Below, piece after piece: positions 3,796 to 46,599 of a stretch of 64,000 nucleotides of DNA; within the stretch, counting starts at the first letter, position 1, and every line of letters begins with the position of its first letter. Source of the DNA: an archaeon (lineage in GTDB: Archaea; Nanobdellota; Nanobdellia; SCGC-AAA011-G17; GW2011-AR17); the NCBI GenBank assembly GCA_018692925.1, contig JABHLH010000016.1, forward strand, positions 19,462-83,461, read 5' to 3'. The notes under the pieces were generated by a model. That model did not search any database. It was not told the origin of the DNA and was given only the letters and a program-made list of their open reading frames with translations. Position numbers and translations under genes: made by a program.

Positions 3796-3797
3796 AT

Positions 3798-26246: not shown

Positions 26247-27548
26247 TTACATAAACCTCATAACTTTCAAATACATTTTGTGCAATCCTTGAACAGAAGT
26301 CAAATGTTTAGCTACATAACCCCATCTTTTAGGATGAGTATAAAATTCAAACAACAATCTTTTCTGTAAAAATTTCAATTCTGAAAAAGAAATATTCTCA
26401 TCTTCAAAAATTCTATTTTTATAATAATCATAATTCTCTGTTAACTTATATTTACCTTTCATACTTTCATACAAATGTGTTTCAGGAAGTGGAGTAGTAA
26501 TTGTTGCAGTAATCTCAGTTGCATCCAAAGATTTAGCAAATTTAATAGTTTGTAAAATCTCTTCTTTAGTTTCCCCTGGAGCTCCAAGCATAATATAACA
26601 AAGACATCTAATTCCAACTTTCTCTGCCATAGCTACATCACCATGAACTTTTGAAAGATCAATATCTTTATGATAAATTTCATCTGCAACTCTTTGACTT
26701 CCAGTTTCTACACCTACATGCATAATTCTCAAACCAGCTGCATACATCATTCTCATTTCTTCTTCATTCAGTAAACCAATTCTAGAATTAATTCCCCACT
26801 GCATTTCTAATTCTTCATCAACAAGTCTTTTACAAAAAACTTTTATCCATTCTTTTCTAACAGTAAAAGTATCATCATTAAACCAAATAGCATTAATACC
26901 AAAATGATTTTTCAAATGTTTCATTTCTTCAATAACACTATCAACTGACCTAGTTCTAACACCTTTACCAAAAATCTTTTCTAAAACTGGCTGACAAAAT
27001 GTACATCTAAAAGGACATCCTCTTGAAGAAAACATATTTGTTCCTCTAACATTTGGATCAATACTATCAAAGACATGCCACAATTTGATATAATCTTCCA
27101 TATCCAATAAATCATAAGCCATAATAGGTAAATTCTCAAGATCAAATCTCTCACCTTGAATAATTTTTTCTTTACACTTACCTTTCAAAATATCCAACAT
27201 AGCAGATTCAGCTTCACCTTTCACAACAAAATCAGAAAATTCTGTTAATGTCTCAGGCCTTAGTGTAGCTTGTGGACCTCCAATAATTACTTTCTTACCT
27301 TTAGACTTTGCATACTTTGCAATTTTCTTAACATCATTTAACATTAAAGAATCACAATAAATAGCAACATAATCTGCATCAAAATCATCAATTCTTTTTC
27401 TGATATAATCCATTGTAGGATGAAAAGTTGAATCTATTAGATCTACAGAATAACCATTATTTCTCAAATGTGCTGCAATTAAAGCCAAACCACCTGGAGG
27501 ATCTCCAGTTTTATACTTCATCCTTGCAAACACTAAACTTATCTTCAT
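26247..27548 (-). CDS. B12-binding (class B) radical SAM enzyme
   Basis: An N-terminal cobalamin-binding Rossmann-like domain is followed by a CPFRCTFC (CxxxCxxC) radical SAM cluster motif. Confidence 0.85.
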   Translation of the reverse strand: MKISLVFARMKYKTGDPPGGLALIAAHLRNNGYSVDLIDSTFHPTMDYIRKRIDDFDADYVAIYCDSLMLNDVKKIAKYAKSKGKKVIIGGPQATLRPETLTEFSDFVVKGEAESAMLDILKGKCKEKIIQGERFDLENLPIMAYDLLDMEDYIKLWHVFDSIDPNVRGTNMFSSRGCPFRCTFCQPVLEKIFGKGVRTRSVDSVIEEMKHLKNHFGINAIWFNDDTFTVRKEWIKVFCKRLVDEELEMQWGINSRIGLLNEEEMRMMYAAGLRIMHVGVETGSQRVADEIYHKDIDLSKVHGDVAMAEKVGIRCLCYIMLGAPGETKEEILQTIKFAKSLDATEITATITTPLPETHLYESMKGKYKLTENYDYYKNRIFEDENISFSELKFLQKRLLFEFYTHPKRWGYVAKHLTSVQGLHKMYLKVMRFM

Positions 27549-27640
27549 AACTCAAATTATTCCAGAATAGACATATATAAGTTTTATTATACTATAATAA
27601 CCCATAAAATTTATAAAGAATCCTTAAGAAAATACACTAG

Positions 27641-28369
27641 ATGTTAAAAGAAAAACAAGATATCAAGAGTCATTACGATTCAGAAGGATTAATCAAGGGA
27701 TATGTTCAAAACAGATTTTCAAAACCTCTAGGCAAATTTTTACATGAAAGAGAAACTTCAATAGTAAACTTATATATTCAAAAAAGCAATGCAGAATCTG
27801 TATTAGATTTAGCTTGTGGCCCTGCAAGATTAACTGTAGATATTGAAACAAAAAATGGAACAGCTTTTGATAATGCAAAAAATATGTTAAGCGTTGCAAA
27901 AAAAAGACTAAAAGGTAAAAAATGGAAATTTGTTCAAGGTGACGCATTCAATTTAAAATTAAAAAATAAATTTGATTTAATTTATTCATTTAGATTCTTC
28001 AGACATTTCAACAAAGAAGACAGAAAATCACTTTTAGCAAATGTACATTCTCACTTAAATGACAATTCTATTTTCATAACAGATATGGCAAATATCAAAT
28101 TCAGAGATAGATCATTAAAACAAAGTAACGAAAGTATTGATGTTGTAGATTACAAAATTGAAAAAAAAGAATTCATTCAAGAATTAGAAGATGCTGGTTT
28201 TGAAATAATTGAAATCGATACTGTAATCAACCATTATAATTTACAAGTTAATGCATCAAGATTATATTACTTAAATTTAGATTCTGTTGCGATGGCTTTA
28301 ATTAGAGAGTTTGAAAGATATCCACCATTTGCAGCTCAAGAATTCGTATTTATAGCTAGAAAAAAATGA
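27641..28369 (+). CDS. Class I SAM-dependent methyltransferase
   Basis: Motif I is VLDLACGPARL, with an acidic post-I motif. It is the paralog of the N-terminal domain of 43061..44476. Confidence 0.7.
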   Translation: MLKEKQDIKSHYDSEGLIKGYVQNRFSKPLGKFLHERETSIVNLYIQKSNAESVLDLACGPARLTVDIETKNGTAFDNAKNMLSVAKKRLKGKKWKFVQGDAFNLKLKNKFDLIYSFRFFRHFNKEDRKSLLANVHSHLNDNSIFITDMANIKFRDRSLKQSNESIDVVDYKIEKKEFIQELEDAGFEIIEIDTVINHYNLQVNASRLYYLNLDSVAMALIREFERYPPFAAQEFVFIARKK

Positions 28370-29082
28370 AAAAAGTCCCTTCAATCAAAGAATTGAATAA
28401 ATTCGCTTGGAAATTCAAAAACAGAAAAACTGAAACTCACCTTAGAATTTTCTCTCCTTATTTTCTTTGGACTTTACTTCACACAAAGATCACTCCAAAT
28501 CAACTTACTATGTTTTGGGTTTTATTAGTAATTATCACATCACCATTTTTCTTAATCTACAATTTTTCAGTTCACATTGTTGCTAGTGCAATTATTTTAC
28601 TTTGTTTACAATTAGACATGGTTGACGGTTCTTTAGCAAGATACAAAAAACAATTCAGTAAGAAAGGAGCTATCATAGATTTCATAGGATCTTGGCTAAT
28701 GGCTATTCTTCCACAAACTTTCTTAGCTATCACATACTTCATACATACAGGAAAAACTTGGATCATTATTGCATTACCTTTCTTCTTAATTGGATTTATC
28801 ATGAAAGAGTTAATTCCATTAAAAGAAATGTTCATTTATCAAAAGAAGATTAAAGATGATAAACCTAAAGACAAAGGAAGATTACACAACATTTATTCTT
28901 TTGCAAGAAAACTAATGCTTATTGATTATTCAATTGAAATGTTATTTATCTCTATACTAATTGGAATTCCTGAATACTACATTTTATTCTATGCATTCTC
29001 TTACAACTTATATTGGATTGCAAAAACTATACATGTATTCATAAAAAAGGAAGATCTTTCTAAAGAAGTATTTTTAACTTAA
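28366..29082 (+). CDS. CDP-alcohol phosphatidyltransferase-like membrane protein
   Basis: DMVDGSLARYKKQFSKKGAIIDFIG partly matches D-G-x2-A-R-x8-G-x3-D. It has 5-6 TM helices. Its start overlaps the upstream methyltransferase gene by 4 nt. Confidence 0.5.
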   Translation: MKKVPSIKELNKFAWKFKNRKTETHLRIFSPYFLWTLLHTKITPNQLTMFWVLLVIITSPFFLIYNFSVHIVASAIILLCLQLDMVDGSLARYKKQFSKKGAIIDFIGSWLMAILPQTFLAITYFIHTGKTWIIIALPFFLIGFIMKELIPLKEMFIYQKKIKDDKPKDKGRLHNIYSFARKLMLIDYSIEMLFISILIGIPEYYILFYAFSYNLYWIAKTIHVFIKKEDLSKEVFLT

Positions 29083-30560
29083 CGTCTAAAGCTCTTAAAA
29101 CTTTTCATATCTTCTTTACTTATTCCTCCAAAGAGAAACAAGAACAACAAGTATACAAAACCATAAACCAAAGCAAAGAGAATCAAGCTATACTTTTCTA
29201 CACTTCCAAAGATCCAAACTAGAGCAAAGAAACTAAGAACTCCTACAATTATAACTTTCAAATATTGTTTTACTAAATCAAAATCTAAAAGTGAAATCCT
29301 AAACTTTCTAAATAAAGGTACAAATAACAAAATATTAAACACTAAAAATGAAAAAGCTGTTGCCAAAGCAGCACCTGTAATCCCATAGCTTTGAATAAAG
29401 ACAATATTCAGCACAACTCCAATACCTGTCGCAATAAAACTAATCACTAACTTCAGTTTAGTCATTGCAAAGCTATTATACAACAAACCTAATACTCCAA
29501 AAAATGTAACAACCATTGTTCCTAACAATAAAATCCTCATAGGCCACAAAGCTCCAATATAATCTACACCAAACAAAAATACAATTAATTCTCCAGTATA
29601 ATAGAACATAAACATAAACAGGGGAAAAGTTAAACTAACAAACCAAGTTAACAATTTCTTATACACTTTTTTAATTTCTTTAAATTTCTTCTCAGCATAC
29701 AATTTACTAACTACAGGAATAAATAAACCTTTAAACAAATTAACAGGTATAACTAACAAAGCTGCCAAAGGTATTGCAACATTATACACTCCAACTAACT
29801 CTTCAGTTAAAAAATAACCAATCATCAAAGTATCAATCCAAGTCATACAAGTAAACAAAGCCCCCATAAACAACAAAGGCCAAGAAAATGTCAATAATTT
29901 TTTTCCAAAAGATTTACCTAAATTTTGATCTTTATATTTTGAAATTAATTTCCATACAATTAACATTCCAACTAAAAAACTAACAAAATAACTCAGGACA
30001 TAAGCCCACATAACTCCAAACAATGAATACCCATAATACAAAAATGCTACAGCCAATAGAACTTTCACTCCTGGCTCAACAATTTGCCTCACAGTAATAT
30101 AATGCTCAATCTTTTTAGTACCTCTAAACACAGCCATAAACAATTCAGTTAAAACCCAGAAAGGCAAGACTAAAGCTAAGATTAACAAGAAATACTTTAA
30201 TGTTCCATTTGAACTAATCAAACTTGACAACTGACTAGAAAATAAAAACAAGAGTACAGCAAATATCAAACTAGAAATTAAGGCAATCTTTAAACCTGAG
30301 AAGATAATATTCTTCATTTCTTTTTTCTGACCATAGAAATATCCAAGATATCTTTCAACACCATGTTCTAAACCTAAAGATGCTACCATCCCTACAATAC
30401 TAAAAACAGCAATACCTAAACTCAAAATACCATAATCTGCTGGACCTAACCATCTAGCAACAATTGTTCTAAATGCAAAATTCAATAATTTCGAGAAGAA
30501 TAGACCTATAAATATAAAGAAGGCTCCTCTTACGATCCAATCCAGCGAACTTTTAGACAT
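29079..30560 (-). CDS. Wzx-like polysaccharide/oligosaccharide flippase (MOP superfamily)
   Basis: 493 aa with ~12-14 TM helices. The N-terminal pattern is typical of polysaccharide biosynthesis proteins. Confidence 0.65.
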   Translation of the reverse strand: MSKSSLDWIVRGAFFIFIGLFFSKLLNFAFRTIVARWLGPADYGILSLGIAVFSIVGMVASLGLEHGVERYLGYFYGQKKEMKNIIFSGLKIALISSLIFAVLLFLFSSQLSSLISSNGTLKYFLLILALVLPFWVLTELFMAVFRGTKKIEHYITVRQIVEPGVKVLLAVAFLYYGYSLFGVMWAYVLSYFVSFLVGMLIVWKLISKYKDQNLGKSFGKKLLTFSWPLLFMGALFTCMTWIDTLMIGYFLTEELVGVYNVAIPLAALLVIPVNLFKGLFIPVVSKLYAEKKFKEIKKVYKKLLTWFVSLTFPLFMFMFYYTGELIVFLFGVDYIGALWPMRILLLGTMVVTFFGVLGLLYNSFAMTKLKLVISFIATGIGVVLNIVFIQSYGITGAALATAFSFLVFNILLFVPLFRKFRISLLDFDLVKQYLKVIIVGVLSFFALVWIFGSVEKYSLILFALVYGFVYLLFLFLFGGISKEDMKSFKSFRR

Positions 30561-30593
30561 ATAAGAAATATAAAAAGACCTATTTAAAAAACT

Positions 30594-31517
30594 TTAGAAT
30601 TCCAATTTTTTACGATATGTCCAATATACAACTAAACCAAATGCATACTTAAACAAGATATTAAACAAAAAGTAATTTACTGACACTGCATAAGGAACAC
30701 CAATCAAACCATACATATAAATTCCTGAGATTTCTTTCAACCCTAAACCTGAAAATGGTATAGGCAACAAAGAGATCATAATGATTAGAGATTGTATCAT
30801 CGCAATATGAAAAATAGAAACTTCTGCTCCAAACATTCTAAATGCAACAAGTCCACCAAAAAATATTCCACTTAATAAAATTGCAGTAATAAAAAAATTC
30901 AAAACTAAAATCTTTTTTCTTCTCTTAAACACATGTTTAAACGAATGTGAAAACCTCTTAAAATACTTTGAATACTTTCTTAAAAAATACTTCTTAATAA
31001 ATCTTCTAACTTTATTTGACCAAGCTCCTAAAAACACACTAACTAAAACTAACAGAGTAGCTAACAAAATCCAAGTATAATCTTGAGATAAATCAAAAAC
31101 AAATAACAAACCTAATACAGCCATTACACCATAAAAAGAAAAAGTAATCAATTTATCAATAAACTGTACAGAAAGAACTTCTCCATATTCAAAATTTTTA
31201 TGTTTCTTCAATAATAATGTTAAACTCAATTCTCCAGTTTTACTTGGAAAAAATAATGCTAAAGAGTTCATCAAAAGAAAATACTTAAACAAACCAAAAT
31301 AAGAAATTCTTCGACGAATAGCCTTAAACAATAATCTTAAATTCAAAGTATAGATCATTTTAGTTCCAACAAAAATAACTACAAATGGGATCAACCAAAA
31401 CAGATTAATATTCTTCAAAACTTCAAAAATGCTATCTACACCAACTTTCCAAAATATTAAAATGAAAATACTAACTAAAATAAAAACATTCAATACTTTC
31501 AACCAAATCTTATTCAT
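30594..31517 (-). CDS. Flippase-like domain membrane protein (UPF0104/LPG-synthase-TM-like)
   Basis: 307 aa, polytopic. The N-terminal KVGVDSIFEVLKNINLFWL pattern is typical of this family. Confidence 0.45.
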   Translation of the reverse strand: MNKIWLKVLNVFILVSIFILIFWKVGVDSIFEVLKNINLFWLIPFVVIFVGTKMIYTLNLRLLFKAIRRRISYFGLFKYFLLMNSLALFFPSKTGELSLTLLLKKHKNFEYGEVLSVQFIDKLITFSFYGVMAVLGLLFVFDLSQDYTWILLATLLVLVSVFLGAWSNKVRRFIKKYFLRKYSKYFKRFSHSFKHVFKRRKKILVLNFFITAILLSGIFFGGLVAFRMFGAEVSIFHIAMIQSLIIMISLLPIPFSGLGLKEISGIYMYGLIGVPYAVSVNYFLFNILFKYAFGLVVYWTYRKKLEF

Positions 31518-31559
31518 ATTATAAAAATTAGAAACTCGGCTTTTAAATCTTATGGAAAA

Positions 31560-33101
31560 TTACTTATTTTCAACTTTAATTTCATCATTATCAAGAACAT
31601 CAATCTCAGAAGTCATTTTTTCCAACCTATAGTAGATATTCTTCAAATCAGGCCTAAACAAAGACTTAGCACTTTGATCCATATAAGGCAATTTATCTAA
31701 AAGAACTTTCATCATTTTATCACTATAATATAATTCTTTCATTACAGCTCTCAAGATATTAAATTTAGTTCTTTTCTTAAACTTAAAGAAAACATTCAAA
31801 GTATCTTTAATATCTAAAACTAAACTCTTTTCTTTTATCCAAGGAGATTTATCTAAAAGATATCTATCATTCCAAGAAGAGTCAACTAAATTCCATTCTT
31901 TCATTTTTTTAGGATGGCTATACTCTCCACTTTCAACTAGCTCATCATACATTGAACCACCTGGATAAGGCCTATAAATACTTGGACCATGTAAATATAA
32001 ATTTGGATTAATTTTATACAATTCTAAAATAAATCTAAAAGTTCTCAACATATCATCTCTATTCTCTCCAGGCATTCCAATAATAAAACTAGTTCTTGGA
32101 ACAATTCCTGCTTCACCACAATCTTTTACAGCTCTCATAACACTTTCTAACTTCAAACCTTTCCTCATTTTCTTCAACATTCTATCAGAACCAGATTCAA
32201 CACCAAAAAGAATAGCTGTACCACCTAACTCTCTCATTCTTTTCAAAACATCAACTGTCAAATAATCATCATTAATATAATCAGCTCTACATTGTGAGTT
32301 CCAAGTAAATTTCAAACCCCTTCTCTCAATCTCGTCTAAAAATCTAAAGAACCTATCTTTCTTCACAAAAAACAATTCATCAATCAAATAAATATCATCA
32401 ACTTCATGCTCATTAATTAACCATTCAATTTCATCTAAAACATGATCAATATCTCTACCTTGCCATTTTCTTTGCATTGCAGAATTAATACAGAAAGTAC
32501 ATGAAAAAGGACATCCATTCCCAGAGAATACAATTCCAGTTTTAACTCTCACACCTTTTCTAAAAGGCAAACTTCTTTCAATAGGATGAAATTTATTTAT
32601 CAATTCATAATTCATTCTTGGTAACTTAGAAAGATCCATCAAACTTCTTTTATCATTAAATATTAACTCATCATTTTCTTTATACCCTAAACCTTTAATT
32701 TCACTTAATTTTTTATCTCCTCTCATTGCATGAATTAATTCTTCACAAAGTTCTTCACCATCTCCAAAACAGATATAATCAATCAACTCATGTTTCAAAG
32801 TTTGAATAGGGAATAAGATTGCATGATAACCACCAAAAATAACTTTAATCTTCGGAAATTTATCTTTAACATATTTAGCTAATTTAAGAGCTTCAGGAAT
32901 TTGTGTACTCATTGCAGAGATTCCAACATACAAAGTTTCTTCAGTAACAAAATTATCAACTGCTTCTAGATCTTTAGAACTGAAAATTAAATTAACATTA
33001 TACTCTTTAGCATCTAAGTAACTTCCAATTGAAAGCAATCCACAATTAAACTCTTCTGTTGACCCACTATGAGATGGATCTATGAATACCACATTTTCCA
33101 T
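31560..33101 (-). CDS. B12-binding (class B) radical SAM enzyme
   Basis: An N-terminal B12-binding domain is followed by a GCPFSCTFC cluster motif. Confidence 0.85.
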   Translation of the reverse strand: MENVVFIDPSHSGSTEEFNCGLLSIGSYLDAKEYNVNLIFSSKDLEAVDNFVTEETLYVGISAMSTQIPEALKLAKYVKDKFPKIKVIFGGYHAILFPIQTLKHELIDYICFGDGEELCEELIHAMRGDKKLSEIKGLGYKENDELIFNDKRSLMDLSKLPRMNYELINKFHPIERSLPFRKGVRVKTGIVFSGNGCPFSCTFCINSAMQRKWQGRDIDHVLDEIEWLINEHEVDDIYLIDELFFVKKDRFFRFLDEIERRGLKFTWNSQCRADYINDDYLTVDVLKRMRELGGTAILFGVESGSDRMLKKMRKGLKLESVMRAVKDCGEAGIVPRTSFIIGMPGENRDDMLRTFRFILELYKINPNLYLHGPSIYRPYPGGSMYDELVESGEYSHPKKMKEWNLVDSSWNDRYLLDKSPWIKEKSLVLDIKDTLNVFFKFKKRTKFNILRAVMKELYYSDKMMKVLLDKLPYMDQSAKSLFRPDLKNIYYRLEKMTSEIDVLDNDEIKVENK

Positions 33102-33189
33102 TTCCCATCTTTATTATGCCAAATTTAAATAATTATCGGTGCATTAATCTACTAAATCTTCAGAAACTTTATAAATCGTACAAAAAGGG

Positions 33190-37407: not shown

Positions 37408-37520
37408 ATCTCAAAGTCTAGAATTCAAACATTTAAAAAGATTATGATAGTGGATTGGCCTAAATTTGAACCCAATGTTAATTCATTAAATTTATAAAAT
37501 AAAAATAAAAAAAGAAAAAT

Positions 37521-37859: not shown

Positions 37860-37897
37860 ACAAAACTCTTATAAAACAAAAGAAAATTACCAAAATT

Positions 37898-40018: not shown

Positions 40019-41842
40019 GTGAACGAAATTAAAGAGGCTATAATTCTAGCAGCAGGATCTAGCCGTAGAATGGGATTGCTTTGTGAGGGAAAACATAAAT
40101 CTTTATTGAAGTATAAAGAGAATACTATCTTAGCTAGAATTATCAATCAACTAAAGAAGGCTAATATTGAGAAATTAGTAATTGTTGTTGGATTCGCAAA
40201 GGATAAAATCATTGAAGAAACAAAAAACATTCAAGATATTGAAATTAAAATTGTAGAAAATCCAAGATATTATGAGGATACAAACATATATTCTATGAAA
40301 CTTGCTTTAGACCACATAGAAAACCCATTTATAATTGTTGAAGCAGATATGATCACTGAAGATGCATTAATCCAATATTTAGCTGGTTCTGACTTTGAAG
40401 GAAAATCTACTTGGCTTACCAAAGGAAAATTTAATGATATGCAATATGGTGGGATATTAAGATCTGATGAATTAGGAAACATAAATGATATTAGAATTGT
40501 TCCTGAATATAGAGATGAATATCAAGAGCACACAAAATTAACAGGTTTAATGAGAGTTGGTCCAAATGAAGTTGATTTATTCAAAAAACTTGTAAACATT
40601 TATGCAGAAAAAACTTTCAAACAATATTTTTTAATTCCTTGGATTGAAAACTTAACACATTTACCTTGTATTGAAGGTGATGCAAGTCAATACAAATTTT
40701 CAACTTTCAATTCACCAGAAGATTACTATAAAGCTATTGAACTAGAATTTGATGAAGAACAAGCACAAGAAAAAGAAATAAATTTCATAGAAACTGAAAG
40801 ATTAAAACATATAGAAAACTTTGACGAAGATAGAGTACAAATATTAATCCAAAAAATTGAAAGAGATGGTGCTTGGTTAAAACCTATTTACATTGAAAAA
40901 AATCACAACTTAGTTCTTGATGGACAACACAGATTACAAGCTGCAATAAGAATGGGAATTAAAAAAATCCCTACACAAGGTTTTGATTATGAAGATGTAA
41001 AAGTTTGGACTTTAAGAAAAGAAGAATATGTTGACATTCCAACTGTAATTGCAAGAGCAAATCAAGGAGACATATATCCTTACAAAACAGTAAAACATAA
41101 TTTCCCAAGAGTGATCAGTGAATGCTACATACCTCTAGAAAATCTAAAAGGAAATATTGTAATTGAAGAAAGAAAAGAAAAATCTAAAAGATTAATTATT
41201 TTAGCAGCAGGCCAAGGTTTCAAAATTCATGGTTTAAACAAACTTTTCATAAAAGATCCAAAAAATAAAGAAATTTTAATTGAAAAATATATTAGACTTT
41301 TCAAAGATTATGAAATTACAGTAGTTCTAGGACACAAAGCTCTACATGTAATGCAAGAATACCCTCAACTAAATTATGTTTACAATGATCAGTGGCGAAT
41401 TACTGGAAATAGTTATAGTTTAAGTTTAGCTTTAGATGATAGACCTACAATCGTAACATCATCAGATTTAATTTTCGATGAAGAAATGTTAAATTTAATT
41501 GAATCTTCACCAGACAACTCAGTATTTGTATTTCAATCTGAAAACAAAGGTTACAACACAGTAAGATGCAAATCTGAAAATGGAAAACTAAAAGAAATGT
41601 TCTTTGGAGAACAATATTCAAATGAACCTGAAACAACAGGAATTTACAAAATTTCAAATCCAGATTTACTTAGGGAATGGAAAAAAAGATGTTCAAATAA
41701 TAAAAATGTTTTCGCAGGAATAAATTTACCTTTAGAAAATCTTAAAATTGATATAATTGACATTAAAAATACATTCTTCCATGAAATAAACACTCCATTA
41801 GACTACATTAATTTAATTGAGAAAACAAAAAATGGATCTTAG
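40019..41842 (+). CDS. Nucleotidyltransferase, then ParB/Srx-like domain, then nucleotidyltransferase (fusion protein, GTG start)
   Basis: The N-terminus AIILAAGSSRRMG is a MobA/IspD/LicC-like GT-A nucleotidyltransferase P-loop. The middle domain has DGQHRLQAAIRMG, giving the DGxHR and GxxRxxA motifs of the ParB/sulfiredoxin fold. The C-terminus LIILAAGQGFKIHG is a second nucleotidyltransferase. Confidence 0.7.
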   Translation: MNEIKEAIILAAGSSRRMGLLCEGKHKSLLKYKENTILARIINQLKKANIEKLVIVVGFAKDKIIEETKNIQDIEIKIVENPRYYEDTNIYSMKLALDHIENPFIIVEADMITEDALIQYLAGSDFEGKSTWLTKGKFNDMQYGGILRSDELGNINDIRIVPEYRDEYQEHTKLTGLMRVGPNEVDLFKKLVNIYAEKTFKQYFLIPWIENLTHLPCIEGDASQYKFSTFNSPEDYYKAIELEFDEEQAQEKEINFIETERLKHIENFDEDRVQILIQKIERDGAWLKPIYIEKNHNLVLDGQHRLQAAIRMGIKKIPTQGFDYEDVKVWTLRKEEYVDIPTVIARANQGDIYPYKTVKHNFPRVISECYIPLENLKGNIVIEERKEKSKRLIILAAGQGFKIHGLNKLFIKDPKNKEILIEKYIRLFKDYEITVVLGHKALHVMQEYPQLNYVYNDQWRITGNSYSLSLALDDRPTIVTSSDLIFDEEMLNLIESSPDNSVFVFQSENKGYNTVRCKSENGKLKEMFFGEQYSNEPETTGIYKISNPDLLREWKKRCSNNKNVFAGINLPLENLKIDIIDIKNTFFHEINTPLDYINLIEKTKNGS

Positions 41843-43070
41843 AACAATTACTATTGGAATTCCTATTAACATAGAATCAGATACATTATTACATCTAGAA
41901 TCTAAATTAAAAAATTTTCTTGAAGAAACAACAATAGCATTAGCAACAGAAAATATTAATATAAGAACTTTCAGAATAAATTTAACTCCGGTTACAAATA
42001 AAGATTCAAATTTAAACTCACAAAAAATAATAGGAAAAATAGAAACTTTCTCAAACTTTGCAGAAAAATTAAACATTAGGTGGATTAACATCCCTTATGA
42101 TTTAACAGAGAACCCAAAAGAATTATCTGAACTTGCTTTTACAATATTAAAAAGATATCCTAAAACTTTTTCAAATTTAATTGTTGCAAAAGATAAAAAT
42201 ATTTCTTACAACGCAATCCCAATAGCTAGTAAATTCATAAAAGATGTTTCAAAATTAGACAACTCTGGATACAATAATTTTAGAGTAGGGGTTTCTTGCA
42301 ACATCAAAGCAAATACTCCATTCTTCCCATACACTTACAGTTCAGAGGAATTAGGAATCTCAACAGGGTTAGAGTTACCAAAAGAATTCATAAAGATAAT
42401 CAACTCTTCAGAGAATAGAGATCTAATCTCATTAAGAGAAGAAATAATAACAAAGATTTCTCCTGAGGTAAACAAAATAAACAATATCCTTTCAGTTTTA
42501 GCAAAAAAACATTTCATTAAATACAATGGGATTGATTTTTCCTTAGCTCCTTATCCTGAAAAAGGTAGCAGTGTTGCAGAATTAATTGAGCTTTTAGGTT
42601 TAGAACAACTTGGCAGCAATGGAACATTGTTCTTAACTTCATACTTAACTGACATATTAAAAGAAATACAAAAAAGAAACAACACTCCAACAACAGGCTT
42701 CAATGGTGTAATGTTTTCTTTATTAGAAGATGAACAACTAGGCTTAAGAAACAACAACAAGTTATTTTCAATTGATTCATTAATTTCATATTCAGCAGTT
42801 TGCGGATGTGGTTTAGACATGATTCCTTTACCAGGAGATATTTTCGAAGAAGAGCTTAACTCAATAATCTTAGATGTAGCTGCCTTATCAACAACCTTAG
42901 ACAAACCTTTAGGAGTAAGAGTATTACCAATTCCAACAAAGCAAGAAAATGAATTCACAACCTTTAACATGGATTTTTTATTCAACACAAGGGTCAAAAA
43001 ACCTAAAAACTTAAGTTTATCAAACAGATTATTAACAAATACAAAATTTTCATATTTAAAATGGCAATAG
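41817..43070 (+). CDS. UPF0210 (DUF711) family protein
   Basis: MDLRTITIGIPI matches the UPF0210 N-terminal DIRTITMGISL. C-terminal CGCGLDMIPLP and GVRVLPIP match SVGLDMIAIP and RIIP of the family. The true start may be the Met at 41832. Confidence 0.7.
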   Translation: MRKQKMDLRTITIGIPINIESDTLLHLESKLKNFLEETTIALATENINIRTFRINLTPVTNKDSNLNSQKIIGKIETFSNFAEKLNIRWINIPYDLTENPKELSELAFTILKRYPKTFSNLIVAKDKNISYNAIPIASKFIKDVSKLDNSGYNNFRVGVSCNIKANTPFFPYTYSSEELGISTGLELPKEFIKIINSSENRDLISLREEIITKISPEVNKINNILSVLAKKHFIKYNGIDFSLAPYPEKGSSVAELIELLGLEQLGSNGTLFLTSYLTDILKEIQKRNNTPTTGFNGVMFSLLEDEQLGLRNNNKLFSIDSLISYSAVCGCGLDMIPLPGDIFEEELNSIILDVAALSTTLDKPLGVRVLPIPTKQENEFTTFNMDFLFNTRVKKPKNLSLSNRLLTNTKFSYLKWQ

Positions 43071-44476
43071 ATTTGAAGGAAGTAAAAAACTTTTGGGAAA
43101 AGCGAGCAGAACAACATAGTGACAACCAAGGTATTACTAACTTAGAAGAAAATAATAAATTAAGAAAATTAAAAACAGAGTTAGAAGAAAATAAAGTTGA
43201 TGAATATCTTCCTCAATTACAAAACAAAACAATTCTAGATTTAGCTGGAGGATATGGTAGATGGGCATTTAGATTTACAAAAAAAGCAAAAGAAGTACAT
43301 GTTGTAGACTATTGTTATGATTTAATTGCTTTAGGAAAAAAGAAATCTAAAGAACAAGGAATAAACAACATCAAATATTTTCAAGCATCAGCTCAGGATT
43401 ATGATAGTAAAACTAAATATGATATTATTTTCATCTCTGGTCTTTTAATTTACTTAAACGATGAAGACCTAAAAACTTTAGGAGAAAAGATTAGACAATA
43501 TTCTCATGAAAACACAAAAGTCATTTTAAGAGATGGAACTGGTATCAAAGGAAGATTTGAAATTAACAGAAGATTCTCTGAAGCTTTACAAACTTATTAT
43601 AGCGCAACTTACAGAACTCCAGAACAATACATTTCTTTCTTCAAAAGCATTGGTTTTGAAATTGTAAAACAAGACAATATGTTTGAAGAAGGTTGTGAAT
43701 TAAATAAATTCCCTGAAACAAGATTAAAAATTTACAAATTTAATAAAAAAACTACAAAAAAAGAAAAGAAAAAGCTTTCATTAAAAGAAATCAGAGAAGG
43801 TAAACATATCAAAGAAGGATTATACACAGACATTCTAAGAGTCCCTCATGTTACACTTACATACTTAATTGTTCACGCAATCAAAGACACAAAGATTACT
43901 CCAAACCAAGTAACTTTATTCAGTATGATTTTACTATTAATTGCAACATATTTCTATGCTGGTGGAACTTATGTATATGCTTTAATTGCTTCTTTACTTT
44001 ACTATTTATCTTTCGTTTTCGACACTGTTGATGGAAATTTAGCAAGACAAAAAGAGATGTGTTCACCTCTTGGAGGCTGGTATGATAAAATAGCTGACAG
44101 AATAATGAATCCAATTTTATTCTTTGCAATAGCTTGGGGTATTTACTTAAACAATCCTTCAGTTTATGTTTGGATTTGGACTTTCACAGCTTTTGCTGTA
44201 TTAGAATTCTCTGTAATAGTACAATATAATTTTAGAGTAATGTTTAATTTTGGAATGGACGAAGTAAAAAAGGAAAGAAAGAAAAGAGGATGGCTAAAAG
44301 AATTTATGTTAAACGACTTTTTCTTATGTCACAGTATAATTCTATTTAGTATTTTTGGCATCTTAGAATACTACATGATATTCTTCACACTATATGGAGG
44401 ATTATTTGACATTGCAATGGTTACAGTAATGACATACAAAGCTAAAAAACATCTCAAAAATGAAAACAGACCTTAA
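43061..44476 (+). CDS. Fusion of a class I SAM methyltransferase (N-terminal) to a CDP-alcohol phosphatidyltransferase (C-terminal, polytopic)
   Basis: N-terminal motif I is ILDLAGGYGRW. The C-terminus has a perfect CDP-OH-PT signature, DTVDGNLARQKEMCSPLGGWYDKIAD (D-G-x2-A-R-x8-G-x3-D-x3-D), followed by TM helices. Confidence 0.8.
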   Translation: MAIDLKEVKNFWEKRAEQHSDNQGITNLEENNKLRKLKTELEENKVDEYLPQLQNKTILDLAGGYGRWAFRFTKKAKEVHVVDYCYDLIALGKKKSKEQGINNIKYFQASAQDYDSKTKYDIIFISGLLIYLNDEDLKTLGEKIRQYSHENTKVILRDGTGIKGRFEINRRFSEALQTYYSATYRTPEQYISFFKSIGFEIVKQDNMFEEGCELNKFPETRLKIYKFNKKTTKKEKKKLSLKEIREGKHIKEGLYTDILRVPHVTLTYLIVHAIKDTKITPNQVTLFSMILLLIATYFYAGGTYVYALIASLLYYLSFVFDTVDGNLARQKEMCSPLGGWYDKIADRIMNPILFFAIAWGIYLNNPSVYVWIWTFTAFAVLEFSVIVQYNFRVMFNFGMDEVKKERKKRGWLKEFMLNDFFLCHSIILFSIFGILEYYMIFFTLYGGLFDIAMVTVMTYKAKKHLKNENRP

Positions 44477-45512
44477 CACAATAATAATAAAAAATGCAGA
44501 ACATTTCCTTAATAATAAAACTGCTCCTGGTCACAATGGTCCATACAACGATCCTGAAACTTATGTTAGAACTCATGCACATCTTTCAATTTTATTCTTC
44601 AAAGCTTTCAAAATAACTAAGAATAACAAATACAAAAAGGAAGCTATCAGACAAATAAACTTTCTTTTATTAAAAGAAGCTAGACCATATAACTCAACTT
44701 TCCATTATAGAAATAAAAAAGGAAAAGACAAATGTAATGGCTTAATAGGTCAAGCTTGGTCAATTGAAGCTTTAATGATTGCTTATGAAAATACAAAAGA
44801 TATAAAATATAAAAACTTAGCAAAACAAGCATTCCATTACATAAACTACCACAATTTTTTATCTTACTGGAAAAAAAGAGAAATCAATGGCAAAGAATTA
44901 TTCCTAGATTTAACTTTTAATCACCAACTTTGGTTTGCTGCAGCTTCTTCATTAATTTCAAACTCAAAAAAAGACAGTATTGGCAAAGAGATTAACAAGT
45001 TTATGGACGAACTTGAAAACAATTTACATATTCACAAAAACGGATTAATCAGACATTTCATTTATCCACAGATTATAACACCATTAAATTTCCTAATGAA
45101 CAAAACTTCAAAAAAATATCTTTATACAAAAGAAGCTTCATATCATGCATTCAATCTTTATGCTTTTGCAATATTAAAACAAAGATTCCCTTCTCATAAA
45201 TTTTGGAGATCTAAGAAGTTCAAAAAATTAACTCAATATGCTATAAGTAAAGAACACTTAAAAATTGCTGAAAAAAACAAATATGGTTTCTCTTACAACC
45301 CTTCAGGAATTGAGACCGCATTTTTCATTTACACATTCAAAGAACAATTCAACAAACCCTCAAAAATGATTAAAATAGCATTAGAAAAACAATTTAGAAG
45401 AAACTTAAACACAAAAACTTTAACTTTAACTGAAAAAACATCAGACCCAAATACTTTAGCTTTAAGAATTTATGAAGCAACTCGTATTCCTAATTTAAAA
45501 CTAGACTTTTAA
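44460..45512 (+). CDS. Hypothetical protein, possibly an (alpha/alpha)-toroid-like polysaccharide-modifying enzyme
   Basis: 350 aa. GLIGQAWSIEALMIAYE and aromatic-rich helices resemble the repeat pattern of six-hairpin enzymes. The link is weak. Confidence 0.35.
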   Translation: MKTDLNTIIIKNAEHFLNNKTAPGHNGPYNDPETYVRTHAHLSILFFKAFKITKNNKYKKEAIRQINFLLLKEARPYNSTFHYRNKKGKDKCNGLIGQAWSIEALMIAYENTKDIKYKNLAKQAFHYINYHNFLSYWKKREINGKELFLDLTFNHQLWFAAASSLISNSKKDSIGKEINKFMDELENNLHIHKNGLIRHFIYPQIITPLNFLMNKTSKKYLYTKEASYHAFNLYAFAILKQRFPSHKFWRSKKFKKLTQYAISKEHLKIAEKNKYGFSYNPSGIETAFFIYTFKEQFNKPSKMIKIALEKQFRRNLNTKTLTLTEKTSDPNTLALRIYEATRIPNLKLDF

Positions 45513-46599
45513 ACTTTTCAGCTTCTTTTTTTCTAGAAAAATTATCAACAGCTAAAGAATGTAAATTAGAAAATTTCTTCAATTCACTTCCATCATTAAC
45601 AAGTCTTTTCATTAGAACTTGAAAATCTTCCTGACTCTTCAAAACATATCCTAATTTATTATTCTTAACAAACTTTGACATAATCCCAACATCATTCACT
45701 AATGTAGGTACATTCATTGAACAAAACTCATAAACTGACACAGGAATGGATTCATTAATTTCAGCATCTCTAAATATGAAACCTAAATCCATAGAGGATA
45801 AAATCCTTGGAAGATTTTCATGCTTAACAAAACCATGATCAACAAAATTAACATTCCTTTCTTTTAATTTTTTAAGAATTTTCTTCTTACATCTACCATC
45901 ACCAATTAAATTCAAAGTCACATTAAATCTAGGAACAACATTCAAAATCCAATGGAACCTATCTTTCTCAGAATAATTACCAAGATAAACTAACTGCAAA
46001 CTACTTTTCTTCTTTTTTCCTTTAGGACTAAACATTTTCACATCTACTCCATTAGAAACCACATGAACATTATCTAATTCAGAAATAGAATTCTTTATTC
46101 CTTTATTTGCAACAGTAATCAAATCTGCTAATTTAAAACTTACATTCAAAAATCCTCTCACAAAATAATTTTTAACAAAAGCACCTAAACCTTCTGCTAC
46201 AAGTCTGGGGAAAAAATGTTTAAAATAGGAGTCATATCTCAAAAACTCAAATGAGTCTCTAATATCTAATACAACTTTCTTACTCAACAATTTAACCAAG
46301 GGAAAACTTAACAAAGTTTCGTACTTAGGAATTGAAACAACAACAAGATCATATCTTTTAAACAAGGTTAAAGAAACAGACTTTATATTCATTTTAATTA
46401 AAAACCAGATAAATGCAAACAAATTACTCTCTGAAGGCCTATGAATTAAATGCCAACCTCGCCTATGAATCTTTTCACTTGATCCACCAAGAATTTCAAC
46501 TTTACAATCTTTAAACTCTTTTACAAAAGAATTAATCCTAACTGCAGGAGCTCCTTTCACAGGATAAAAATCTTCCAAAATAAACAATACTTTTTTCAT
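45490..46599 (-). CDS. GT4-type (Glycos_transf_1) glycosyltransferase
   Basis: The C-terminal half has the GT-B pattern (...EFCSMNVPTLVNDVGIMSKFV...GYVL). Length is 369 aa. Confidence 0.65.
   Translation of the reverse strand: MKKVLFILEDFYPVKGAPAVRINSFVKEFKDCKVEILGGSSEKIHRRGWHLIHRPSESNLFAFIWFLIKMNIKSVSLTLFKRYDLVVVSIPKYETLLSFPLVKLLSKKVVLDIRDSFEFLRYDSYFKHFFPRLVAEGLGAFVKNYFVRGFLNVSFKLADLITVANKGIKNSISELDNVHVVSNGVDVKMFSPKGKKKKSSLQLVYLGNYSEKDRFHWILNVVPRFNVTLNLIGDGRCKKKILKKLKERNVNFVDHGFVKHENLPRILSSMDLGFIFRDAEINESIPVSVYEFCSMNVPTLVNDVGIMSKFVKNNKLGYVLKSQEDFQVLMKRLVNDGSELKKFSNLHSLAVDNFSRKKEAEKFKSLVLN

Follow-up and report, generated by a model that had tools for sequence, protein, structure and literature searches.

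Two described bacterial systems parallel genes analysed here. The FtaABCD proteins of C. difficile form an experimentally shown CDP-N-methylthreonine pathway of the flagella (bioRxiv 10.64898/2026.02.12.704994), and in Pasteurella BcbE, BcbF and BcbG add fructose to the capsule as a side chain (PMC13552107). For the DUF711/UPF0210 proteins, described background is structural, their fold being a PFL/RNR-like ten-stranded barrel (PMC4390871).

We compared these systems with positions 26247-46599 of a 64,000-nucleotide stretch of archaeal DNA, the window. An earlier note on this DNA had interpreted the region as one island serving one product. Pfam and NCBIfam scans confirmed its genes as real and correctly placed: the HAD phosphatase with the NTase-kinase-NTase protein, the NTase-ParB/Srx-NTase protein, the Wzx flippase, the flippase-like protein and the UPF0210 protein, together with two CDP-alcohol phosphotransferase modules (28366-29082 and, as the C-terminal half of a fusion, in 43061-44476). 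The analysis shows what the domains are, that synteny is conserved and that modules are swapped.

Cassette B: genes, distribution and proposed route

Cassette B (40019-44476) consists of three genes:

40019-41842, plus strand: gene 1, three-domain protein with a LicC/PntC-like cytidylyltransferase (residues ~1-235), a SerK/SbnI-like ParB/Srx-fold kinase (~235-385) and a second, MobA-like NTase (~395-607)
41817-43070, plus strand: gene 2, DUF711/UPF0210 protein (Pfam DUF711, 2e-70)
43061-44476, plus strand: gene 3, fusion of a class-I SAM methyltransferase (~1-235) and a six-TM classical CDP-alcohol phosphotransferase (~255-471), by Pfam

The first protein matches NTP_transf_3 (1e-22) and, weakly, ParB_N in Pfam, and its family profile finds LicC (6e-19), PntC (5e-13), the free serine kinase SerK (1.5e-10) and SbnI (1.7e-6) in the PDB. 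Its bacterial two-domain homologues show 50-60% identity, and the family of the kinase-like domain comprises 214 clusters at E<=1e-10 among 1.84 billion representatives. The only PDB relative of the DUF711 protein is 2HA9, a structure without known function. In the third protein, the methyltransferase half has its best PDB matches among phospho(methyl)ethanolamine N-methyltransferases (1e-8 to 6e-6) and NTMT1, and is 37-50% identical to the product of the methyltransferase gene next after DUF711 in loci of Proteobacteria, Acidobacteria and Myxococcota. A motif check found the complete DxxDGxxAR(x8)GxxxDxxxD signature in the transferase half, whose best PDB matches are AF2299 (6e-17) and IPCT-DIPPS (7e-7), lipid synthases reaching just 0.02-0.06.

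The core of cassette B, a kinase/NTase gene followed by DUF711, is present in almost every one of 57 genome loci; our literature search turned up no description of the cassette. Some 35 of the loci, proteobacterial and acidobacterial, share the fixed order NTase, kinase, NTase, DUF711, methyltransferase and racemase, adjoined by a TagF-like or LicD gene. The transferase is interchangeable across loci, being of TagF-like, LicD or CDP-alcohol type, and the last replaces the other two in the archaeal, Anaerolineales and Myxococcota versions. Three proteobacterial copies fall within flagellar gene clusters, directly after flgK and flgL in two Pseudomonas loci (L045 and L047) and between fliFGHI and flgEF in a Cedecea locus (L062). 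Agrobacterium plasmids carry this ParB-like domain together with SbnA-like and SbnB-like genes, in a cluster that also encodes a CDP-alcohol transferase and a cytidylyltransferase of the PntC-like kind; enzymes of the SbnA/SbnB type use O-phosphoserine. The racemase of the bacterial cassette, nearest to cysteate racemase (151 bits against a cut-off of 190), is absent from the copy in the window.

The probable product of cassette B is a serine-derived head group, CDP-activated and N-methylated, that is moved onto a glycan; the cassette's substrates, step order and acceptor, like those of the other genes discussed below, we infer from homology and synteny. In step 1, the SerK/SbnI-like domain would phosphorylate free serine or a closely related beta-hydroxy amino acid, and in step 2 the fused LicC/PntC-like domain would couple the phosphorylated product to CMP, yielding a CDP-amino acid. 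The methyltransferase would N-methylate the amine of the head group in step 3. In step 4, the fused CDP-alcohol phosphotransferase would transfer the phospho-head group to a hydroxyl of a membrane-bound, probably lipid-linked glycan, releasing CMP and leaving a zwitterionic, N-methylated decoration joined by a phosphodiester. This scheme is incomplete: the DUF711 protein and the second NTase stand outside the numbered steps and would act somewhere on the route, possibly converting the serine moiety, e.g. by decarboxylation. The pathway logic is the same as in C. difficile FtaABCD, and the comparison is made at the level of logic. Known CDP-alcohol phosphotransferases act on lipids or small soluble alcohols, and we know of no characterised precedent for a classical member with a glycan acceptor.

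The earlier proposal that a kinase and a cytidylyltransferase make CDP-X, with methylation and transfer of phospho-X to an envelope glycan, is well supported for 40019-44476, where it is backed by recurrence, the swappable transferase, the flagellar loci and the FtaABCD logic, but not as the chemistry of a single-product island. Functional coupling of the region's genes in the present species would also fit, given their physical clustering and three divergent radical-SAM/donor-operon promoter pairs. The case for separate cassettes is that the other genes do not travel with cassette B outside the same species. The radical SAM genes, the HAD and NTase-kinase-NTase genes, Wzx, the flippase-like gene and the first methyltransferase/CDP-alcohol pair lie beside it only in same-species contigs. 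In a relative that is 91% identical in the cassette (L015), radical SAM genes are absent, and a different gene set takes the slot: it encodes a transketolase in split form, a SIS isomerase, a distant paralogue of the kinase, and HAD proteins that are KdsC-like. Co-occurrence in other genomes, the check suggested earlier, was thus found for the NTase-kinase, DUF711, methyltransferase and transferase set but not for the radical SAM genes with the remaining genes.

Module A and the 407-aa protein

Module A (33190-35972) is a separate conserved cassette, listed here with a linked gene:

33190-33591, plus strand: cap-less small HAD phosphatase of the EcbF/BcbF family (NCBIfam TIGR01689, 173.2 bits against a cut-off of 162)
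33588-35972, plus strand: three-domain protein with an NTase/GT-A-like domain (residues 1-235), an APH-fold kinase (235-545) and a sugar-1-phosphate-type NTase (545-794), by Pfam/NCBIfam
38195-39418, plus strand: conserved 407-aa protein with a Rossmann-like N-terminus, a candidate transferase linked to module A

The first two genes overlap by 4 nt. The HAD protein is 49-55% identical to the HAD encoded beside the kinase gene in Veillonella and Natrinema, and its identity to the 'capsule biosynthesis phosphatase' of E. coli kps region 2 is 52% at the protein level and 73% at the nucleotide level over 221 nt. The HAD and the three domains of the larger protein, four parts in all, keep their synteny as neighbouring genes in Veillonella, in Natrinema and in the capsule loci of E. 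coli (kps region 2). As read from the sequence, the G-x-G-x-R loop is missing in the N-terminal domain of the three-domain protein and present in its C-terminal NTase. A PDB search matched this protein to the NDP-sugar pyrophosphorylase 4EVW (2e-23). Its AlphaFold model (pLDDT 87) has 4EVW, RmlA and GlmU as top Foldseek matches. In structure, the nearest relatives of its C-terminal domain are sugar-1-phosphate NTases.

The 407-aa protein gave no match in Pfam and NCBIfam searches, and its single-sequence AlphaFold prediction has a pLDDT of 39. It is 80% identical in loci L015 and L016, where its gene lies directly downstream of sugar-activation genes, and 34% identical to the product of the gene after the kinase and HAD genes in Natrinema. 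It probably belongs with module A.

The module A kinase could be a LicA-type alcohol kinase, and the earlier note had read a kinase plus a cytidylyltransferase-like domain as making a CDP/NDP-X donor for a phospho-alcohol or phospho-sugar decoration. Against a phospho-alcohol, module A is conserved as a cassette of its own, and EcbF/BcbF membership of the HAD points to an NDP-sugar. By analogy, an NDP-ketose side branch is a more likely product than a phospho-alcohol, since the HAD falls in the EcbF/BcbF family and BcbE/F/G add fructose. The HAD belongs to the same phosphatase family as Pasteurella BcbF; the link of the kinase and NTases to BcbE and BcbG is drawn by analogy. Identity to the E. 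coli kinase gene is low at 23-27%, and therefore the sugar may differ. On the NDP-ketose reading, a sugar phosphate would gain a second phosphate at its anomeric position from the APH-fold kinase and lose the other to the BcbF-type HAD, and the C-terminal NTase would make the NDP-sugar, a fructose-like ketose being the best guess. The GT-A-like domain or the 407-aa protein would attach its sugar as a side branch.

Radical SAM proteins, the split transferase pair and flippases

Further genes of the region are candidates for tailoring and export:

26247-27548, minus strand: B12-binding-domain radical SAM protein 1 (Pfam), first in a leftward operon with a 137-aa protein, GNAT and PMT_2 GT-C
31560-33101, minus strand: B12-binding-domain radical SAM protein 2 (Pfam), opening a leftward operon that also encodes the flippase-like protein and Wzx
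35950-37407, minus strand: B12-binding-domain radical SAM protein 3 (Pfam), convergent with the module A gene
27641-29082, plus strand: split pair of a methyltransferase (27641-28369) and a CDP-alcohol phosphotransferase (28366-29082)
29079-30560, minus strand: Wzx/MOP-type oligosaccharide flippase with many hydrophobic segments (Pfam Polysacc_synt, 1e-24; Polysacc_synt_3; MatE)
30594-31517, minus strand: flippase-like membrane protein, PF03706/TIGR00374 (Pfam, 6e-29; TIGR00374, 63.7 bits against a cut-off of 43.2)

All three radical SAM proteins pass the Pfam gathering scores and carry CxxxCxxC. The three paralogous enzymes noted earlier are thus present, but their pairwise identity is just 26-28%, which makes them distant and not recent paralogues. 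None reaches a curated family cut-off in NCBIfam; the best families for protein 3 (BchE, HpnJ and Sden_1168 P-methyltransferase) all score far under theirs. In the PDB, protein 1 matches AprD4 (1e-20) and QCMT (2e-14), protein 2 matches QCMT (9CCB, 7e-17), TokK (2e-13) and AprD4 (6e-12), and the top match of protein 3 is AprD4 (1e-20); no similarity to Tes/GDGT-MAS appeared in this search at E<=0.001. AprD4 is a cobalamin-independent diol dehydratase. In polysaccharide loci of bacteria, homologues of protein 3 (43-46% identity) are accompanied by NDP-sugar enzymes, by Wzx, by GT2 plus a flippase-like protein, and by NeuB, and one radical SAM homologue, P0352, carries a fused GT9 domain. The C-methylation ascribed to these enzymes is unproven: for two of them the closest solved structure is that of a dehydratase, and relatives are found in polysaccharide loci of bacteria.

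In colinear BLASTP alignments with the cassette B fusion, the split pair shows 23% identity over 196 aa in the methyltransferase (6e-10) and 30% over 202 aa in the transferase (6e-15); judged by these alignments, it is a split, diverged paralogue of the fusion. The signature of its transferase is degenerate, DxxDGxxAR(x8)GxxxDxxxS, with the final Asp replaced by Ser, and no conserved partner of the pair was found in other loci. Orthology of the CDP-alcohol modules to archaetidylinositol or archaetidylserine synthases is ruled out by scores of 43-60 bits against cut-offs of 170-180 and by the lack of synteny with lipid genes. The three radical SAM proteins would tailor a lipid-linked glycan, and the split pair, Wzx and the flippase-like protein would contribute to its tailoring and export.

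Cassette borders and the wider glycan locus

Four features missed by the earlier note are the 407-aa protein (38195-39418) and the following:

39459-39680 and 39680-39928, plus strand: antitoxin and ParE-family toxin, at the point where the 407-aa gene gives way to cassette B (identical contigs carry Pfam ParE_toxin and DUF7557)
44460-45512, plus strand: 350-aa protein with a weak C5-epimerase C-terminal match (Pfam), overlapping the end of 43061-44476
45490-46599, minus strand: GT4 glycosyltransferase (Pfam Glycos_transf_1), convergent with cassette B

L015 has 88- and 82-aa ORFs at the junction occupied by the ParE pair (39459-39928). In L015 and L016 the 350-aa protein, whose fold may be an alpha/alpha-toroid, is encoded at the corresponding place with 87-88% identity; the bacterial loci lack it. 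The GT4 is 84% identical in L015, where it and the next gene, a PMT_2 GT-C (46596-48284), are kept as ORFs of the same size and order.

The glycan locus spans ~42 kb, from ~19.5 kb (GDP-mannose dehydratase) to ~61.8 kb, and the region's borders as first drawn are therefore arbitrary. Of three class-I SAM methyltransferases claimed for the region, two lie within it (27641-28369 and the N-terminal half of 43061-44476) but the third does not, the next two being encoded outside at 49428-50108 and 51657-52370. The surroundings described earlier were borne out: GT2, GT4 and PMT_2 (GT-C) genes flank the region (Pfam), and the 55043-58198 surface protein, with hydrophobic segments at both termini, has 58 N-X-S/T sequons against ~23 expected from composition. 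GC content is uniform at ~28-29%, and searches for tRNA genes and Rfam families gave no hit.

The window encodes archaeal CDC48, PolB, FEN1 and Trm5, and its cassette B is 91-92% identical to loci of Woesearchaeota and Nanoarchaeota MAGs. On balance, we lean towards viewing 26247-46599 as part of a hypervariable surface-glycan locus of a DPANN archaeon that is Woesearchaeota-like. This part would be a mosaic, combining at least two independent donor-making cassettes, both shared with bacteria, with genes for tailoring and export.

Gene content and genomic setting

The region under study (26247-46599) had been described in an earlier note as a single accessory island making a nucleotide-activated, methylated phospho-alcohol or phospho-sugar decoration. 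Nearly all of the domains named there were confirmed in place by Pfam and NCBIfam searches, and the observation as a whole is real, although minor corrections are needed. Three class-I methyltransferases had been counted, whereas only two were found inside the region. The three radical SAM enzymes are all present, each with a B12-binding domain, but for proteins that had been called paralogous they share only 26-28% identity. Added here to the earlier list are a ParE toxin with its antitoxin, a GT4 gene and two proteins, a conserved one of 407 aa and another of 350 aa.

Main features of the region and its surroundings (window coordinates)
26247-27548, minus strand, radical SAM 1
27549-27640, divergent promoter region, leftward radical SAM gene / rightward donor-synthesis operon
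27641-29082, plus strand, first methyltransferase/CDP-alcohol transferase pair
31560-33101, minus strand, radical SAM 2
33102-33189, divergent promoter region, leftward radical SAM gene / rightward donor-synthesis operon
33190-33591, HAD protein of module A
33588-35972, NTase-like/APH kinase/NTase protein of module A
35950-37407, minus strand, radical SAM 3
37408-37520, divergent promoter region, leftward radical SAM gene / rightward donor-synthesis operon
38195-39418, 407-aa gene, probably also of module A
40019-41842, NTase/ParB-like kinase/NTase gene of cassette B
41817-43070, DUF711 gene of cassette B
43061-44476, methyltransferase-CDP-alcohol transferase fusion of cassette B
55043-58198, minus strand, surface protein, 1051 aa, hydrophobic segments at both termini, Ig-like and PKD-type domains

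Upstream of the region the window encodes archaeal CDC48, a family-B DNA polymerase, FEN1, Trm5/TYW2 and HerA. The organism can be assigned to the DPANN archaea because the key genes are 91-92% identical to loci of MAGs titled Candidatus Woesearchaeota and Nanoarchaeota. The composition of the window bears no sign of recent transfer, with a uniform GC content of ~28-29%, and tRNA and Rfam scans of the window gave no match. In public assemblies, 36 indexed blocks contain an exact match to the 33588-35972 protein, and the same gene order was found on several contigs.

The region is only part of a glycan locus that spans ~19.5-61.8 kb of the window and contains a GDP-mannose dehydratase, four GT2, three GT4 and four PMT_2 GT-C genes, and further methyltransferases. 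The membrane-anchored protein encoded at 55043-58198 carries 58 sequons (N-X-S/T) versus ~23 expected; it is likely a surface glycoprotein or S-layer protein, which the locus could plausibly modify. Inside the operons, at 25832-26245 (minus strand) and 37521-38152 (plus strand), are three small conserved ORFs (137, 112 and 84 aa); none matches a known family, and the 84-aa ORF carries a hydrophobic segment.

Distribution and predicted chemistry of cassette B

By searching public genomes with an alignment of the NTase/ParB-like/NTase protein we obtained 57 loci, in which the window proteins were then sought by tblastn. The NTase-kinase(-NTase) gene, DUF711 and a methyltransferase occur together almost everywhere in this collection. 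The carriers of this gene set, termed here cassette B (40019-44476 in the window), include Pseudomonas, Pantoea, Cedecea, Yersinia, Xanthomonas, Agrobacterium, Acidobacteriota, Myxococcota, Chloroflexota, gut Firmicutes, Patescibacteria and DPANN archaea. Many bacteria have a version of the first cassette protein whose two-domain core is 50-60% identical, and the family of the kinase-like domain is of modest size (214 clusters at E<=1e-10 among 1.84 billion representatives). Matches to the NTase and/or kinase-like domain of the query were also found on 283 plasmids, mostly of Ralstonia, Rhizobium, Sinorhizobium and Agrobacterium, one cluster of which was inspected.

One fixed gene order is seen in ~35 loci of Proteobacteria and Acidobacteriota: NTase, ParB-like domain, NTase, DUF711, methyltransferase and an Asp/Glu-type racemase, with a TagF-like transferase just upstream or downstream of the cassette or a LicD gene instead. 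The Firmicutes and Patescibacteria versions are usually accompanied by LicD, and in Anaerolineales, Myxococcota and archaea a CDP-alcohol phosphotransferase takes the place of both. Such an exchangeable phosphotransferase beside a constant biosynthetic core would be expected of a core that makes a CDP-linked donor. The cassette directly follows flgK and flgL in Pseudomonas mangrovi and in another Pseudomonas, and in Cedecea it is located, alongside GT2 and GT25 genes, between fliFGHI and flgEF; these sites are flagellin glycosylation islands.

Two other neighborhoods combine related genes with phosphonate metabolism. In Butyrivibrio fibrisolvens (loci L011 and L012) the NTase-kinase, DUF711 and two methyltransferase genes adjoin a CTP-transferase/PEP-mutase fusion, with a phosphonopyruvate-decarboxylase-like TPP enzyme, three LicD genes and a racemase nearby, which suggests two different phospho(no)-head-group decorations within one polysaccharide locus. 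The inspected plasmid cluster, on Agrobacterium tumefaciens pAt2 (NZ_CP048517.1, 56757-71233), encodes a PEP mutase, an aminotransferase, a PntC-like cytidylyltransferase, an oxidoreductase, a 400-aa CDP-alcohol phosphotransferase and a ParB-fold SerK/SbnI-like protein, followed by SbnB-like, alanine racemase and SbnA-like genes; it looks like a cluster for an undescribed phosphonate/diaminopropionate product. PEP mutase is found next to the cassette in Butyrivibrio and in the Agrobacterium plasmid cluster as a separate module, and a phosphonate pathway was rejected for the window, where a Pfam scan detected no PEP mutase.

The cassette B family profile matched in the PDB the phosphocholine cytidylyltransferase LicC (6e-19), the phosphonate cytidylyltransferase PntC (5e-13), the free serine kinase SerK (1.5e-10) and the serine kinase SbnI (1.7e-6). 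The kinase-like domain scores 32 bits with the NCBIfam SerK model versus a cut-off of 380, and a VLDGQHR motif is conserved in the alignment of the ParB-like domain family. On the Agrobacterium plasmids the ParB-like domain adjoins SbnA-like and SbnB-like genes, beside which are a PntC-like cytidylyltransferase and a CDP-alcohol transferase; SbnA and SbnB use O-phosphoserine. The racemase of the bacterial cassettes is nearest to cysteate racemase, a likeness that would be in keeping with a beta-substituted, acidic alanine such as phosphoserine. The fusion protein encoded at 43061-44476 has a methyltransferase half closest to phospho(methyl)ethanolamine N-methyltransferases and to NTMT1, an alpha-N-methyltransferase. 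For the transferase half the best matches are with AF2299 and IPCT-DIPPS, enzymes with soluble CDP-alcohols as donors, and those with lipid synthases are much weaker. This half belongs to PF01066 (2.5e-13) and carries from residue 321 the full signature D(x)2DG(x)2AR(x)8G(x)3D(x)3D, which reads DTVDGNLARQKEMCSPLGGWYDKIAD.

We tentatively propose, as a reading that is quite possible, that cassette B represents an undescribed class of post-glycosylation modification in Bacteria and Archaea. The kinase, the LicC-like NTase and the DUF711 protein would make an N-methylated CDP-amino-acid-derived head group, which in this DPANN archaeon the fused CDP-alcohol phosphotransferase would install on a surface glycan. 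The kinase, cytidylyltransferase, methyltransferase and transferase logic of the earlier note is right in kind for cassette B, as indicated by the recurring core, the interchangeable transferase and the precedent of the Fta system. We found no literature that describes cassette B or links SerK or SbnI to glycans, and the publications on DUF711/UPF0210 cover its fold classification and give no function; the sole solved structure of the family has no assigned function either.

The precedent comes from the CDP-threonine flagellin post-glycosylation systems FtaABCD (CD0241-0244) of Clostridioides difficile 630 and PA1088-PA1091 of Pseudomonas aeruginosa PAO1. Phospho-N-methyl- or N,N-dimethyl-threonine is found on the C. 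difficile type A and P. aeruginosa b-type flagellin glycans (PMC10714395, PMC11833859). FtaC methylates CDP-threonine and the TagF-like FtaD transfers the head group; it was only in 2026, in this one bacterial flagellin system, that CDP-activated amino acids were shown to serve as donors in glycan decoration (bioRxiv 10.64898/2026.02.12.704994). Likened by logic and domains, cassette B is predicted to follow the Fta route from a phospho-amino acid through a LicC-like NTase to a CDP-amino acid, with a putative class-I SAM N-methyltransferase and phosphotransfer to sugar, and bacterial copies of cassette B are also located in flagellar clusters with a TagF-like transferase. The differences begin with the kinase, which is a SerK/SbnI-like ParB-fold protein in cassette B versus the PSP/ThrH-like FtaA; no PSP/ThrH-like HAD is encoded in cassette B, the only HAD of the region being the 133-aa TIGR01689 member of module A. 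The obligatory DUF711, the second NTase and the usual racemase have no Fta counterpart. In the window the transferase is a membrane CDP-alcohol phosphotransferase with the classical motif, fused to the methyltransferase, whereas FtaD lacks this motif; the TagF-like type without a CDP-AP motif (FtaD, the C-terminus of PA1091) is absent from the window copy, but present in the proteobacterial cassettes. The hosts also differ, an archaeon without bacterial flagella versus flagellate bacteria. By its logic and domain composition, cassette B appears to be related to the newly established CDP-amino-acid post-glycosylation systems, as a widespread variant that has gone undescribed.

The LicA/LicC/LicD system and the Kennedy pathway also have in common with cassette B the succession of kinase, cytidylyltransferase and phosphotransferase. 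The cassette B kinase, however, has a ParB/Srx fold and not the choline-kinase fold of the Lic system, to which cassette B adds the methyltransferase and DUF711. A full LicABCD set was not found, since only a LicC-like domain is present, LicD and the LicB permease are absent from the window, and the APH-fold kinase belongs to module A. In an alternative with the transfer logic proposed above but another head group, a phosphocholine- or phospho-N-methylethanolamine-type decoration would be made de novo: serine would be phosphorylated and CMP-activated, DUF711 would decarboxylate the product to the ethanolamine level, the PMT-like methyltransferase would methylate it one to three times, and the transferase would attach it. 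The best matches of the methyltransferase half agree with this scheme, as do LicC as the nearest relative of the first NTase domain in 40019-41842 and the pairing of Firmicute cassettes with LicD, a phosphocholine transferase family; it would also provide DUF711 with a necessary step. However, nothing points to DUF711 as a decarboxylase, the racemase conserved in most bacterial copies implies that a chiral amino acid is kept, and the characterized precedent retains the carboxylate (N-methylthreonine). We consider this scheme unlikely.

Slightly less probable again is that the CDP-alcohol phosphotransferases build or remodel polar membrane lipids, a Kennedy-type reaction in which a CDP-(N-methyl)amino-alcohol and a diether or diacyl lipid would yield a serine-, ethanolamine- or choline-like phospholipid, to be moved by the flippase-like protein. 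If true, this could matter for a DPANN cell scavenging host lipids. The classical CDP-AP motif of the fused protein would fit, and its methyltransferase half resembles the phosphoethanolamine N-methyltransferases of the phosphatidylcholine pathway. The flippase-like protein falls in PF03706, the family of the MprF flippase domain, and an FtaB homologue was reported in a lipid-like region of Methanobrevibacter in the FtaABCD preprint (10.64898/2026.02.12.704994). On the other hand, the bacterial cassette pairs with glycan-acting TagF-like or LicD transferases and is also located in flagellar glycosylation regions, the nearest solved transferases are AF2299 and DIPPS and not lipid synthases, and the window combines many glycosyltransferases with an absence of lipid biosynthesis genes, and hence of any synteny with them. 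Orthology of the two CDP-alcohol modules with archaetidylinositol-phosphate or archaetidylserine synthases, which the earlier note had named as contrary evidence, was not observed: they score 60.2 and 43.3 bits versus a cut-off of 180 (NF040950), 44.5 and 31.3 bits versus 170 (PIPSynth), and 22.5 bits versus 107 (pssA).

The glycan reading is also preferred over a role in osmolyte synthesis. IPCT/DIPPS and AF2299 are the best solved relatives of the transferase and likewise fuse a cytosolic enzyme domain to a membrane transferase, but the fusion partner is a methyltransferase in the window protein versus an NTase in IPCT/DIPPS, the window transferase scores 48 bits versus the curated DIPPS cut-off of 580, and it is located in a glycan locus. 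A compatible-solute (DIP-like) product was rejected because the bacterial cassette copies adjoin glycan transferases in flagellar and polysaccharide loci.

Module A, the radical SAM genes and the mosaic structure of the region

The earlier note had assigned the HAD/NTase-kinase-NTase pair to its single phospho-alcohol or phospho-sugar pathway, which is probably wrong given the HAD family and its synteny with capsule loci. The 133-aa HAD of this pair, the core of module A, scores 173.2 bits over the full length of the TIGR01689 (EcbF/BcbF) model, whose cut-off is 162. In Pasteurella multocida type B, the bcbE and bcbG mutants lack the fructose side chain, and BcbF is predicted to act with both gene products (PMC13552107). 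The NTase-like domain, APH-fold kinase, NTase and HAD are encoded by neighboring genes in Veillonella, Natrinema and E. coli kps region 2; by this neighborhood, the partner genes are candidate counterparts of BcbE and BcbG. The HAD of E. coli kps region 2 is 52% identical to the window protein, with 73% nucleotide identity over 221 nt (window 33322-33542), which is unusually high for an archaeon-E. coli comparison. In contrast, the window kinase protein is only 23-27% identical to the E. coli kinase gene product, and the small NTase fused to it is a separate gene in E. coli, Veillonella and Natrinema. The E. coli gene, annotated as 'capsule biosynthesis phosphatase', is present in 128 of 5426 complete E. 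coli genomes at several different loci (kps region 2 in L076 and L077), some of which are near 2.3 Mb in O78 and ETEC H10407 strains. The serotype of the kps loci may be K52, whose capsule contains fructose; the K52 assignment was not confirmed in the literature on these loci and is not used as evidence.

In the 33588-35972 protein, the G-x-G-x-R loop can be read from the sequence in the C-terminal domain and is absent from the N-terminal domain, and the nearest structures to the C-terminal domain are sugar-1-phosphate NTases. The AlphaFold model of the protein is good; its Foldseek list is filled by NTase domains and does not separate the substrate class of the kinase. In L015, a relative 91% identical in cassette B, the slot of module A is occupied by a transketolase and a SIS isomerase. 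Together with the HAD family, the synteny and the NTase structures, this favors a role of module A in activation of a ketose or other sugar phosphate, a phospho-alcohol being less likely. As predicted, the kinase would phosphorylate the anomeric position of the ketose or other sugar phosphate, the HAD phosphatase and then the NTase would follow, and the last step would be transfer by the GT-A-like domain or the 407-aa protein. Because the closest full-length homologues of the module A protein (loci L004 and L005) pair with KdsC-like HAD phosphatases, the sugar could be one other than fructose.

All three radical SAM proteins score above the gathering thresholds of PF04055 and PF02310, with CxxxCxxC at residues 178, 197 and 202; an N-terminal Rossmann domain of the B12-binding type with a CxxxCxxC core is a feature that they have in common with TokK, QCMT, Fom3, GenK and AprD4. 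None of the three reaches a curated NCBIfam family cut-off, the best score being 184 bits for BchE versus 481. Their solved relatives are the methylases QCMT and TokK and the cobalamin-independent diol dehydratase AprD4, the last being the top PDB match of two of these three proteins. A closer relationship to the Tes/GDGT-MAS lipid-cyclization enzymes, which the earlier note had named as contrary evidence, was not seen, as no GDGT-MAS chain is among the PDB matches at E<=0.001 for any of the proteins. Homologues of radical SAM 3 (43-46% identity) are found in bacterial polysaccharide loci together with NDP-sugar enzymes, Wzx, GT2 and a flippase-like protein, NeuB and sugar C-methyltransferase-type genes. 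One of them, the 822-aa protein P0352, is fused to a GT9 (heptosyltransferase-family) domain, which directly links this clade to glycan assembly. The radical SAM proteins are therefore predicted to be tailoring enzymes of glycan loci.

The first methyltransferase/CDP-alcohol transferase pair (27641-29082) is a split and diverged copy of the fusion in cassette B, with 23% identity in the methyltransferase and 30% in the transferase. The CDP-alcohol signature of the transferase (28366-29082, plus strand) is only partly present, with the last Asp replaced by Ser (DMVDGSLARYKKQFSKKGAIIDFIGS; DFIGS), and this phosphotransferase may be inactive or have altered chemistry. No conserved partner for the pair was found among the 57 loci.

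The least probable of the alternatives is that of the earlier note, in which all genes of 26247-46599 make one product: the kinase/NTase proteins would give one nucleotide-linked alcohol or sugar, to be C-methylated by the class-B radical SAM enzymes, O- or N-methylated by the methyltransferases and attached by the CDP-alcohol transferases. The tight packing of the genes speaks for it, as do the identical gene order in several same-species metagenome contigs and the archaeal locus L005, which combines the HAD, the NTase-kinase-NTase and a B12-radical SAM gene. Each radical SAM gene is also divergent from a donor operon across a promoter region of 88-113 nt, with a TTTATAA-type box ~25-30 nt ahead of the rightward start codon; a search of the three regions for a longer shared regulatory element found only these ordinary archaeal promoter boxes and chance short repeats.

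However, among the 57 loci only the same-species contigs carry the radical SAM genes, the HAD/NTase-kinase-NTase genes, Wzx, the flippase-like gene and the first methyltransferase/CDP-alcohol pair, the sole exception being one distant radical SAM gene in the Scalinduaceae locus L019. In Veillonella, Natrinema and E. coli, module A is accompanied by neither a radical SAM gene nor a CDP-alcohol transferase. The one-product reading also relies on methylation by enzymes for which no methylase family membership was found, two of which have a dehydratase as their top solved relative. L015, the closest relative, retains cassette B and the 407-aa gene with the rest replaced. From the 407-aa gene onwards its order is as in the window: a pair of toxin/antitoxin-sized ORFs, cassette B, the 350-aa gene, GT4 and PMT_2. 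Upstream of the 407-aa gene (975-7108) it encodes a HAD, a shikimate-dehydrogenase-like protein, a KdsC-like HAD fusion, an NTase-like/kinase paralogue that is 20% identical to the window protein over its full length, a SIS isomerase and a split transketolase, which looks like a different sugar activation pathway of the heptose or ketose type. The proposal of a single 20 kb pathway is thus not borne out: cassette B, module A and the radical SAM genes part ways in other genomes, and the island is better described as several exchangeable modules. A ParE-family toxin and a small antitoxin (39459-39928) are located exactly between the 407-aa gene and cassette B, and L015 has ORFs of 88 and 82 aa at the corresponding junction (8371-8885); the pair may stabilize the locus or mark a seam of recombination between exchangeable cassettes.

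Significance for DUF711, capsule biosynthesis and DPANN surfaces

If the proposed role of cassette B is true, it would give the first biochemical role for DUF711, extend to archaea the CDP-amino-acid chemistry first shown in 2026 in C. difficile, and provide a CDP-alcohol phosphotransferase acting on a glycan acceptor. The cassette appears parallel to the one bacterial flagellin CDP-amino-acid system, with a different kinase and a taxonomically much wider distribution, and it places DUF711, a large family with a solved structure, in a defined and testable biochemical context. Module A offers a hypothesis for the fructose-branch step in Pasteurella, Haemophilus and E. coli capsules, namely the succession of kinase, phosphatase, NTase and transferase. 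For the biology of DPANN archaea, the locus illustrates that an organism with a reduced genome keeps a large, horizontally assembled and rapidly changing set of surface-glycan genes, which is relevant to host attachment and virus evasion.
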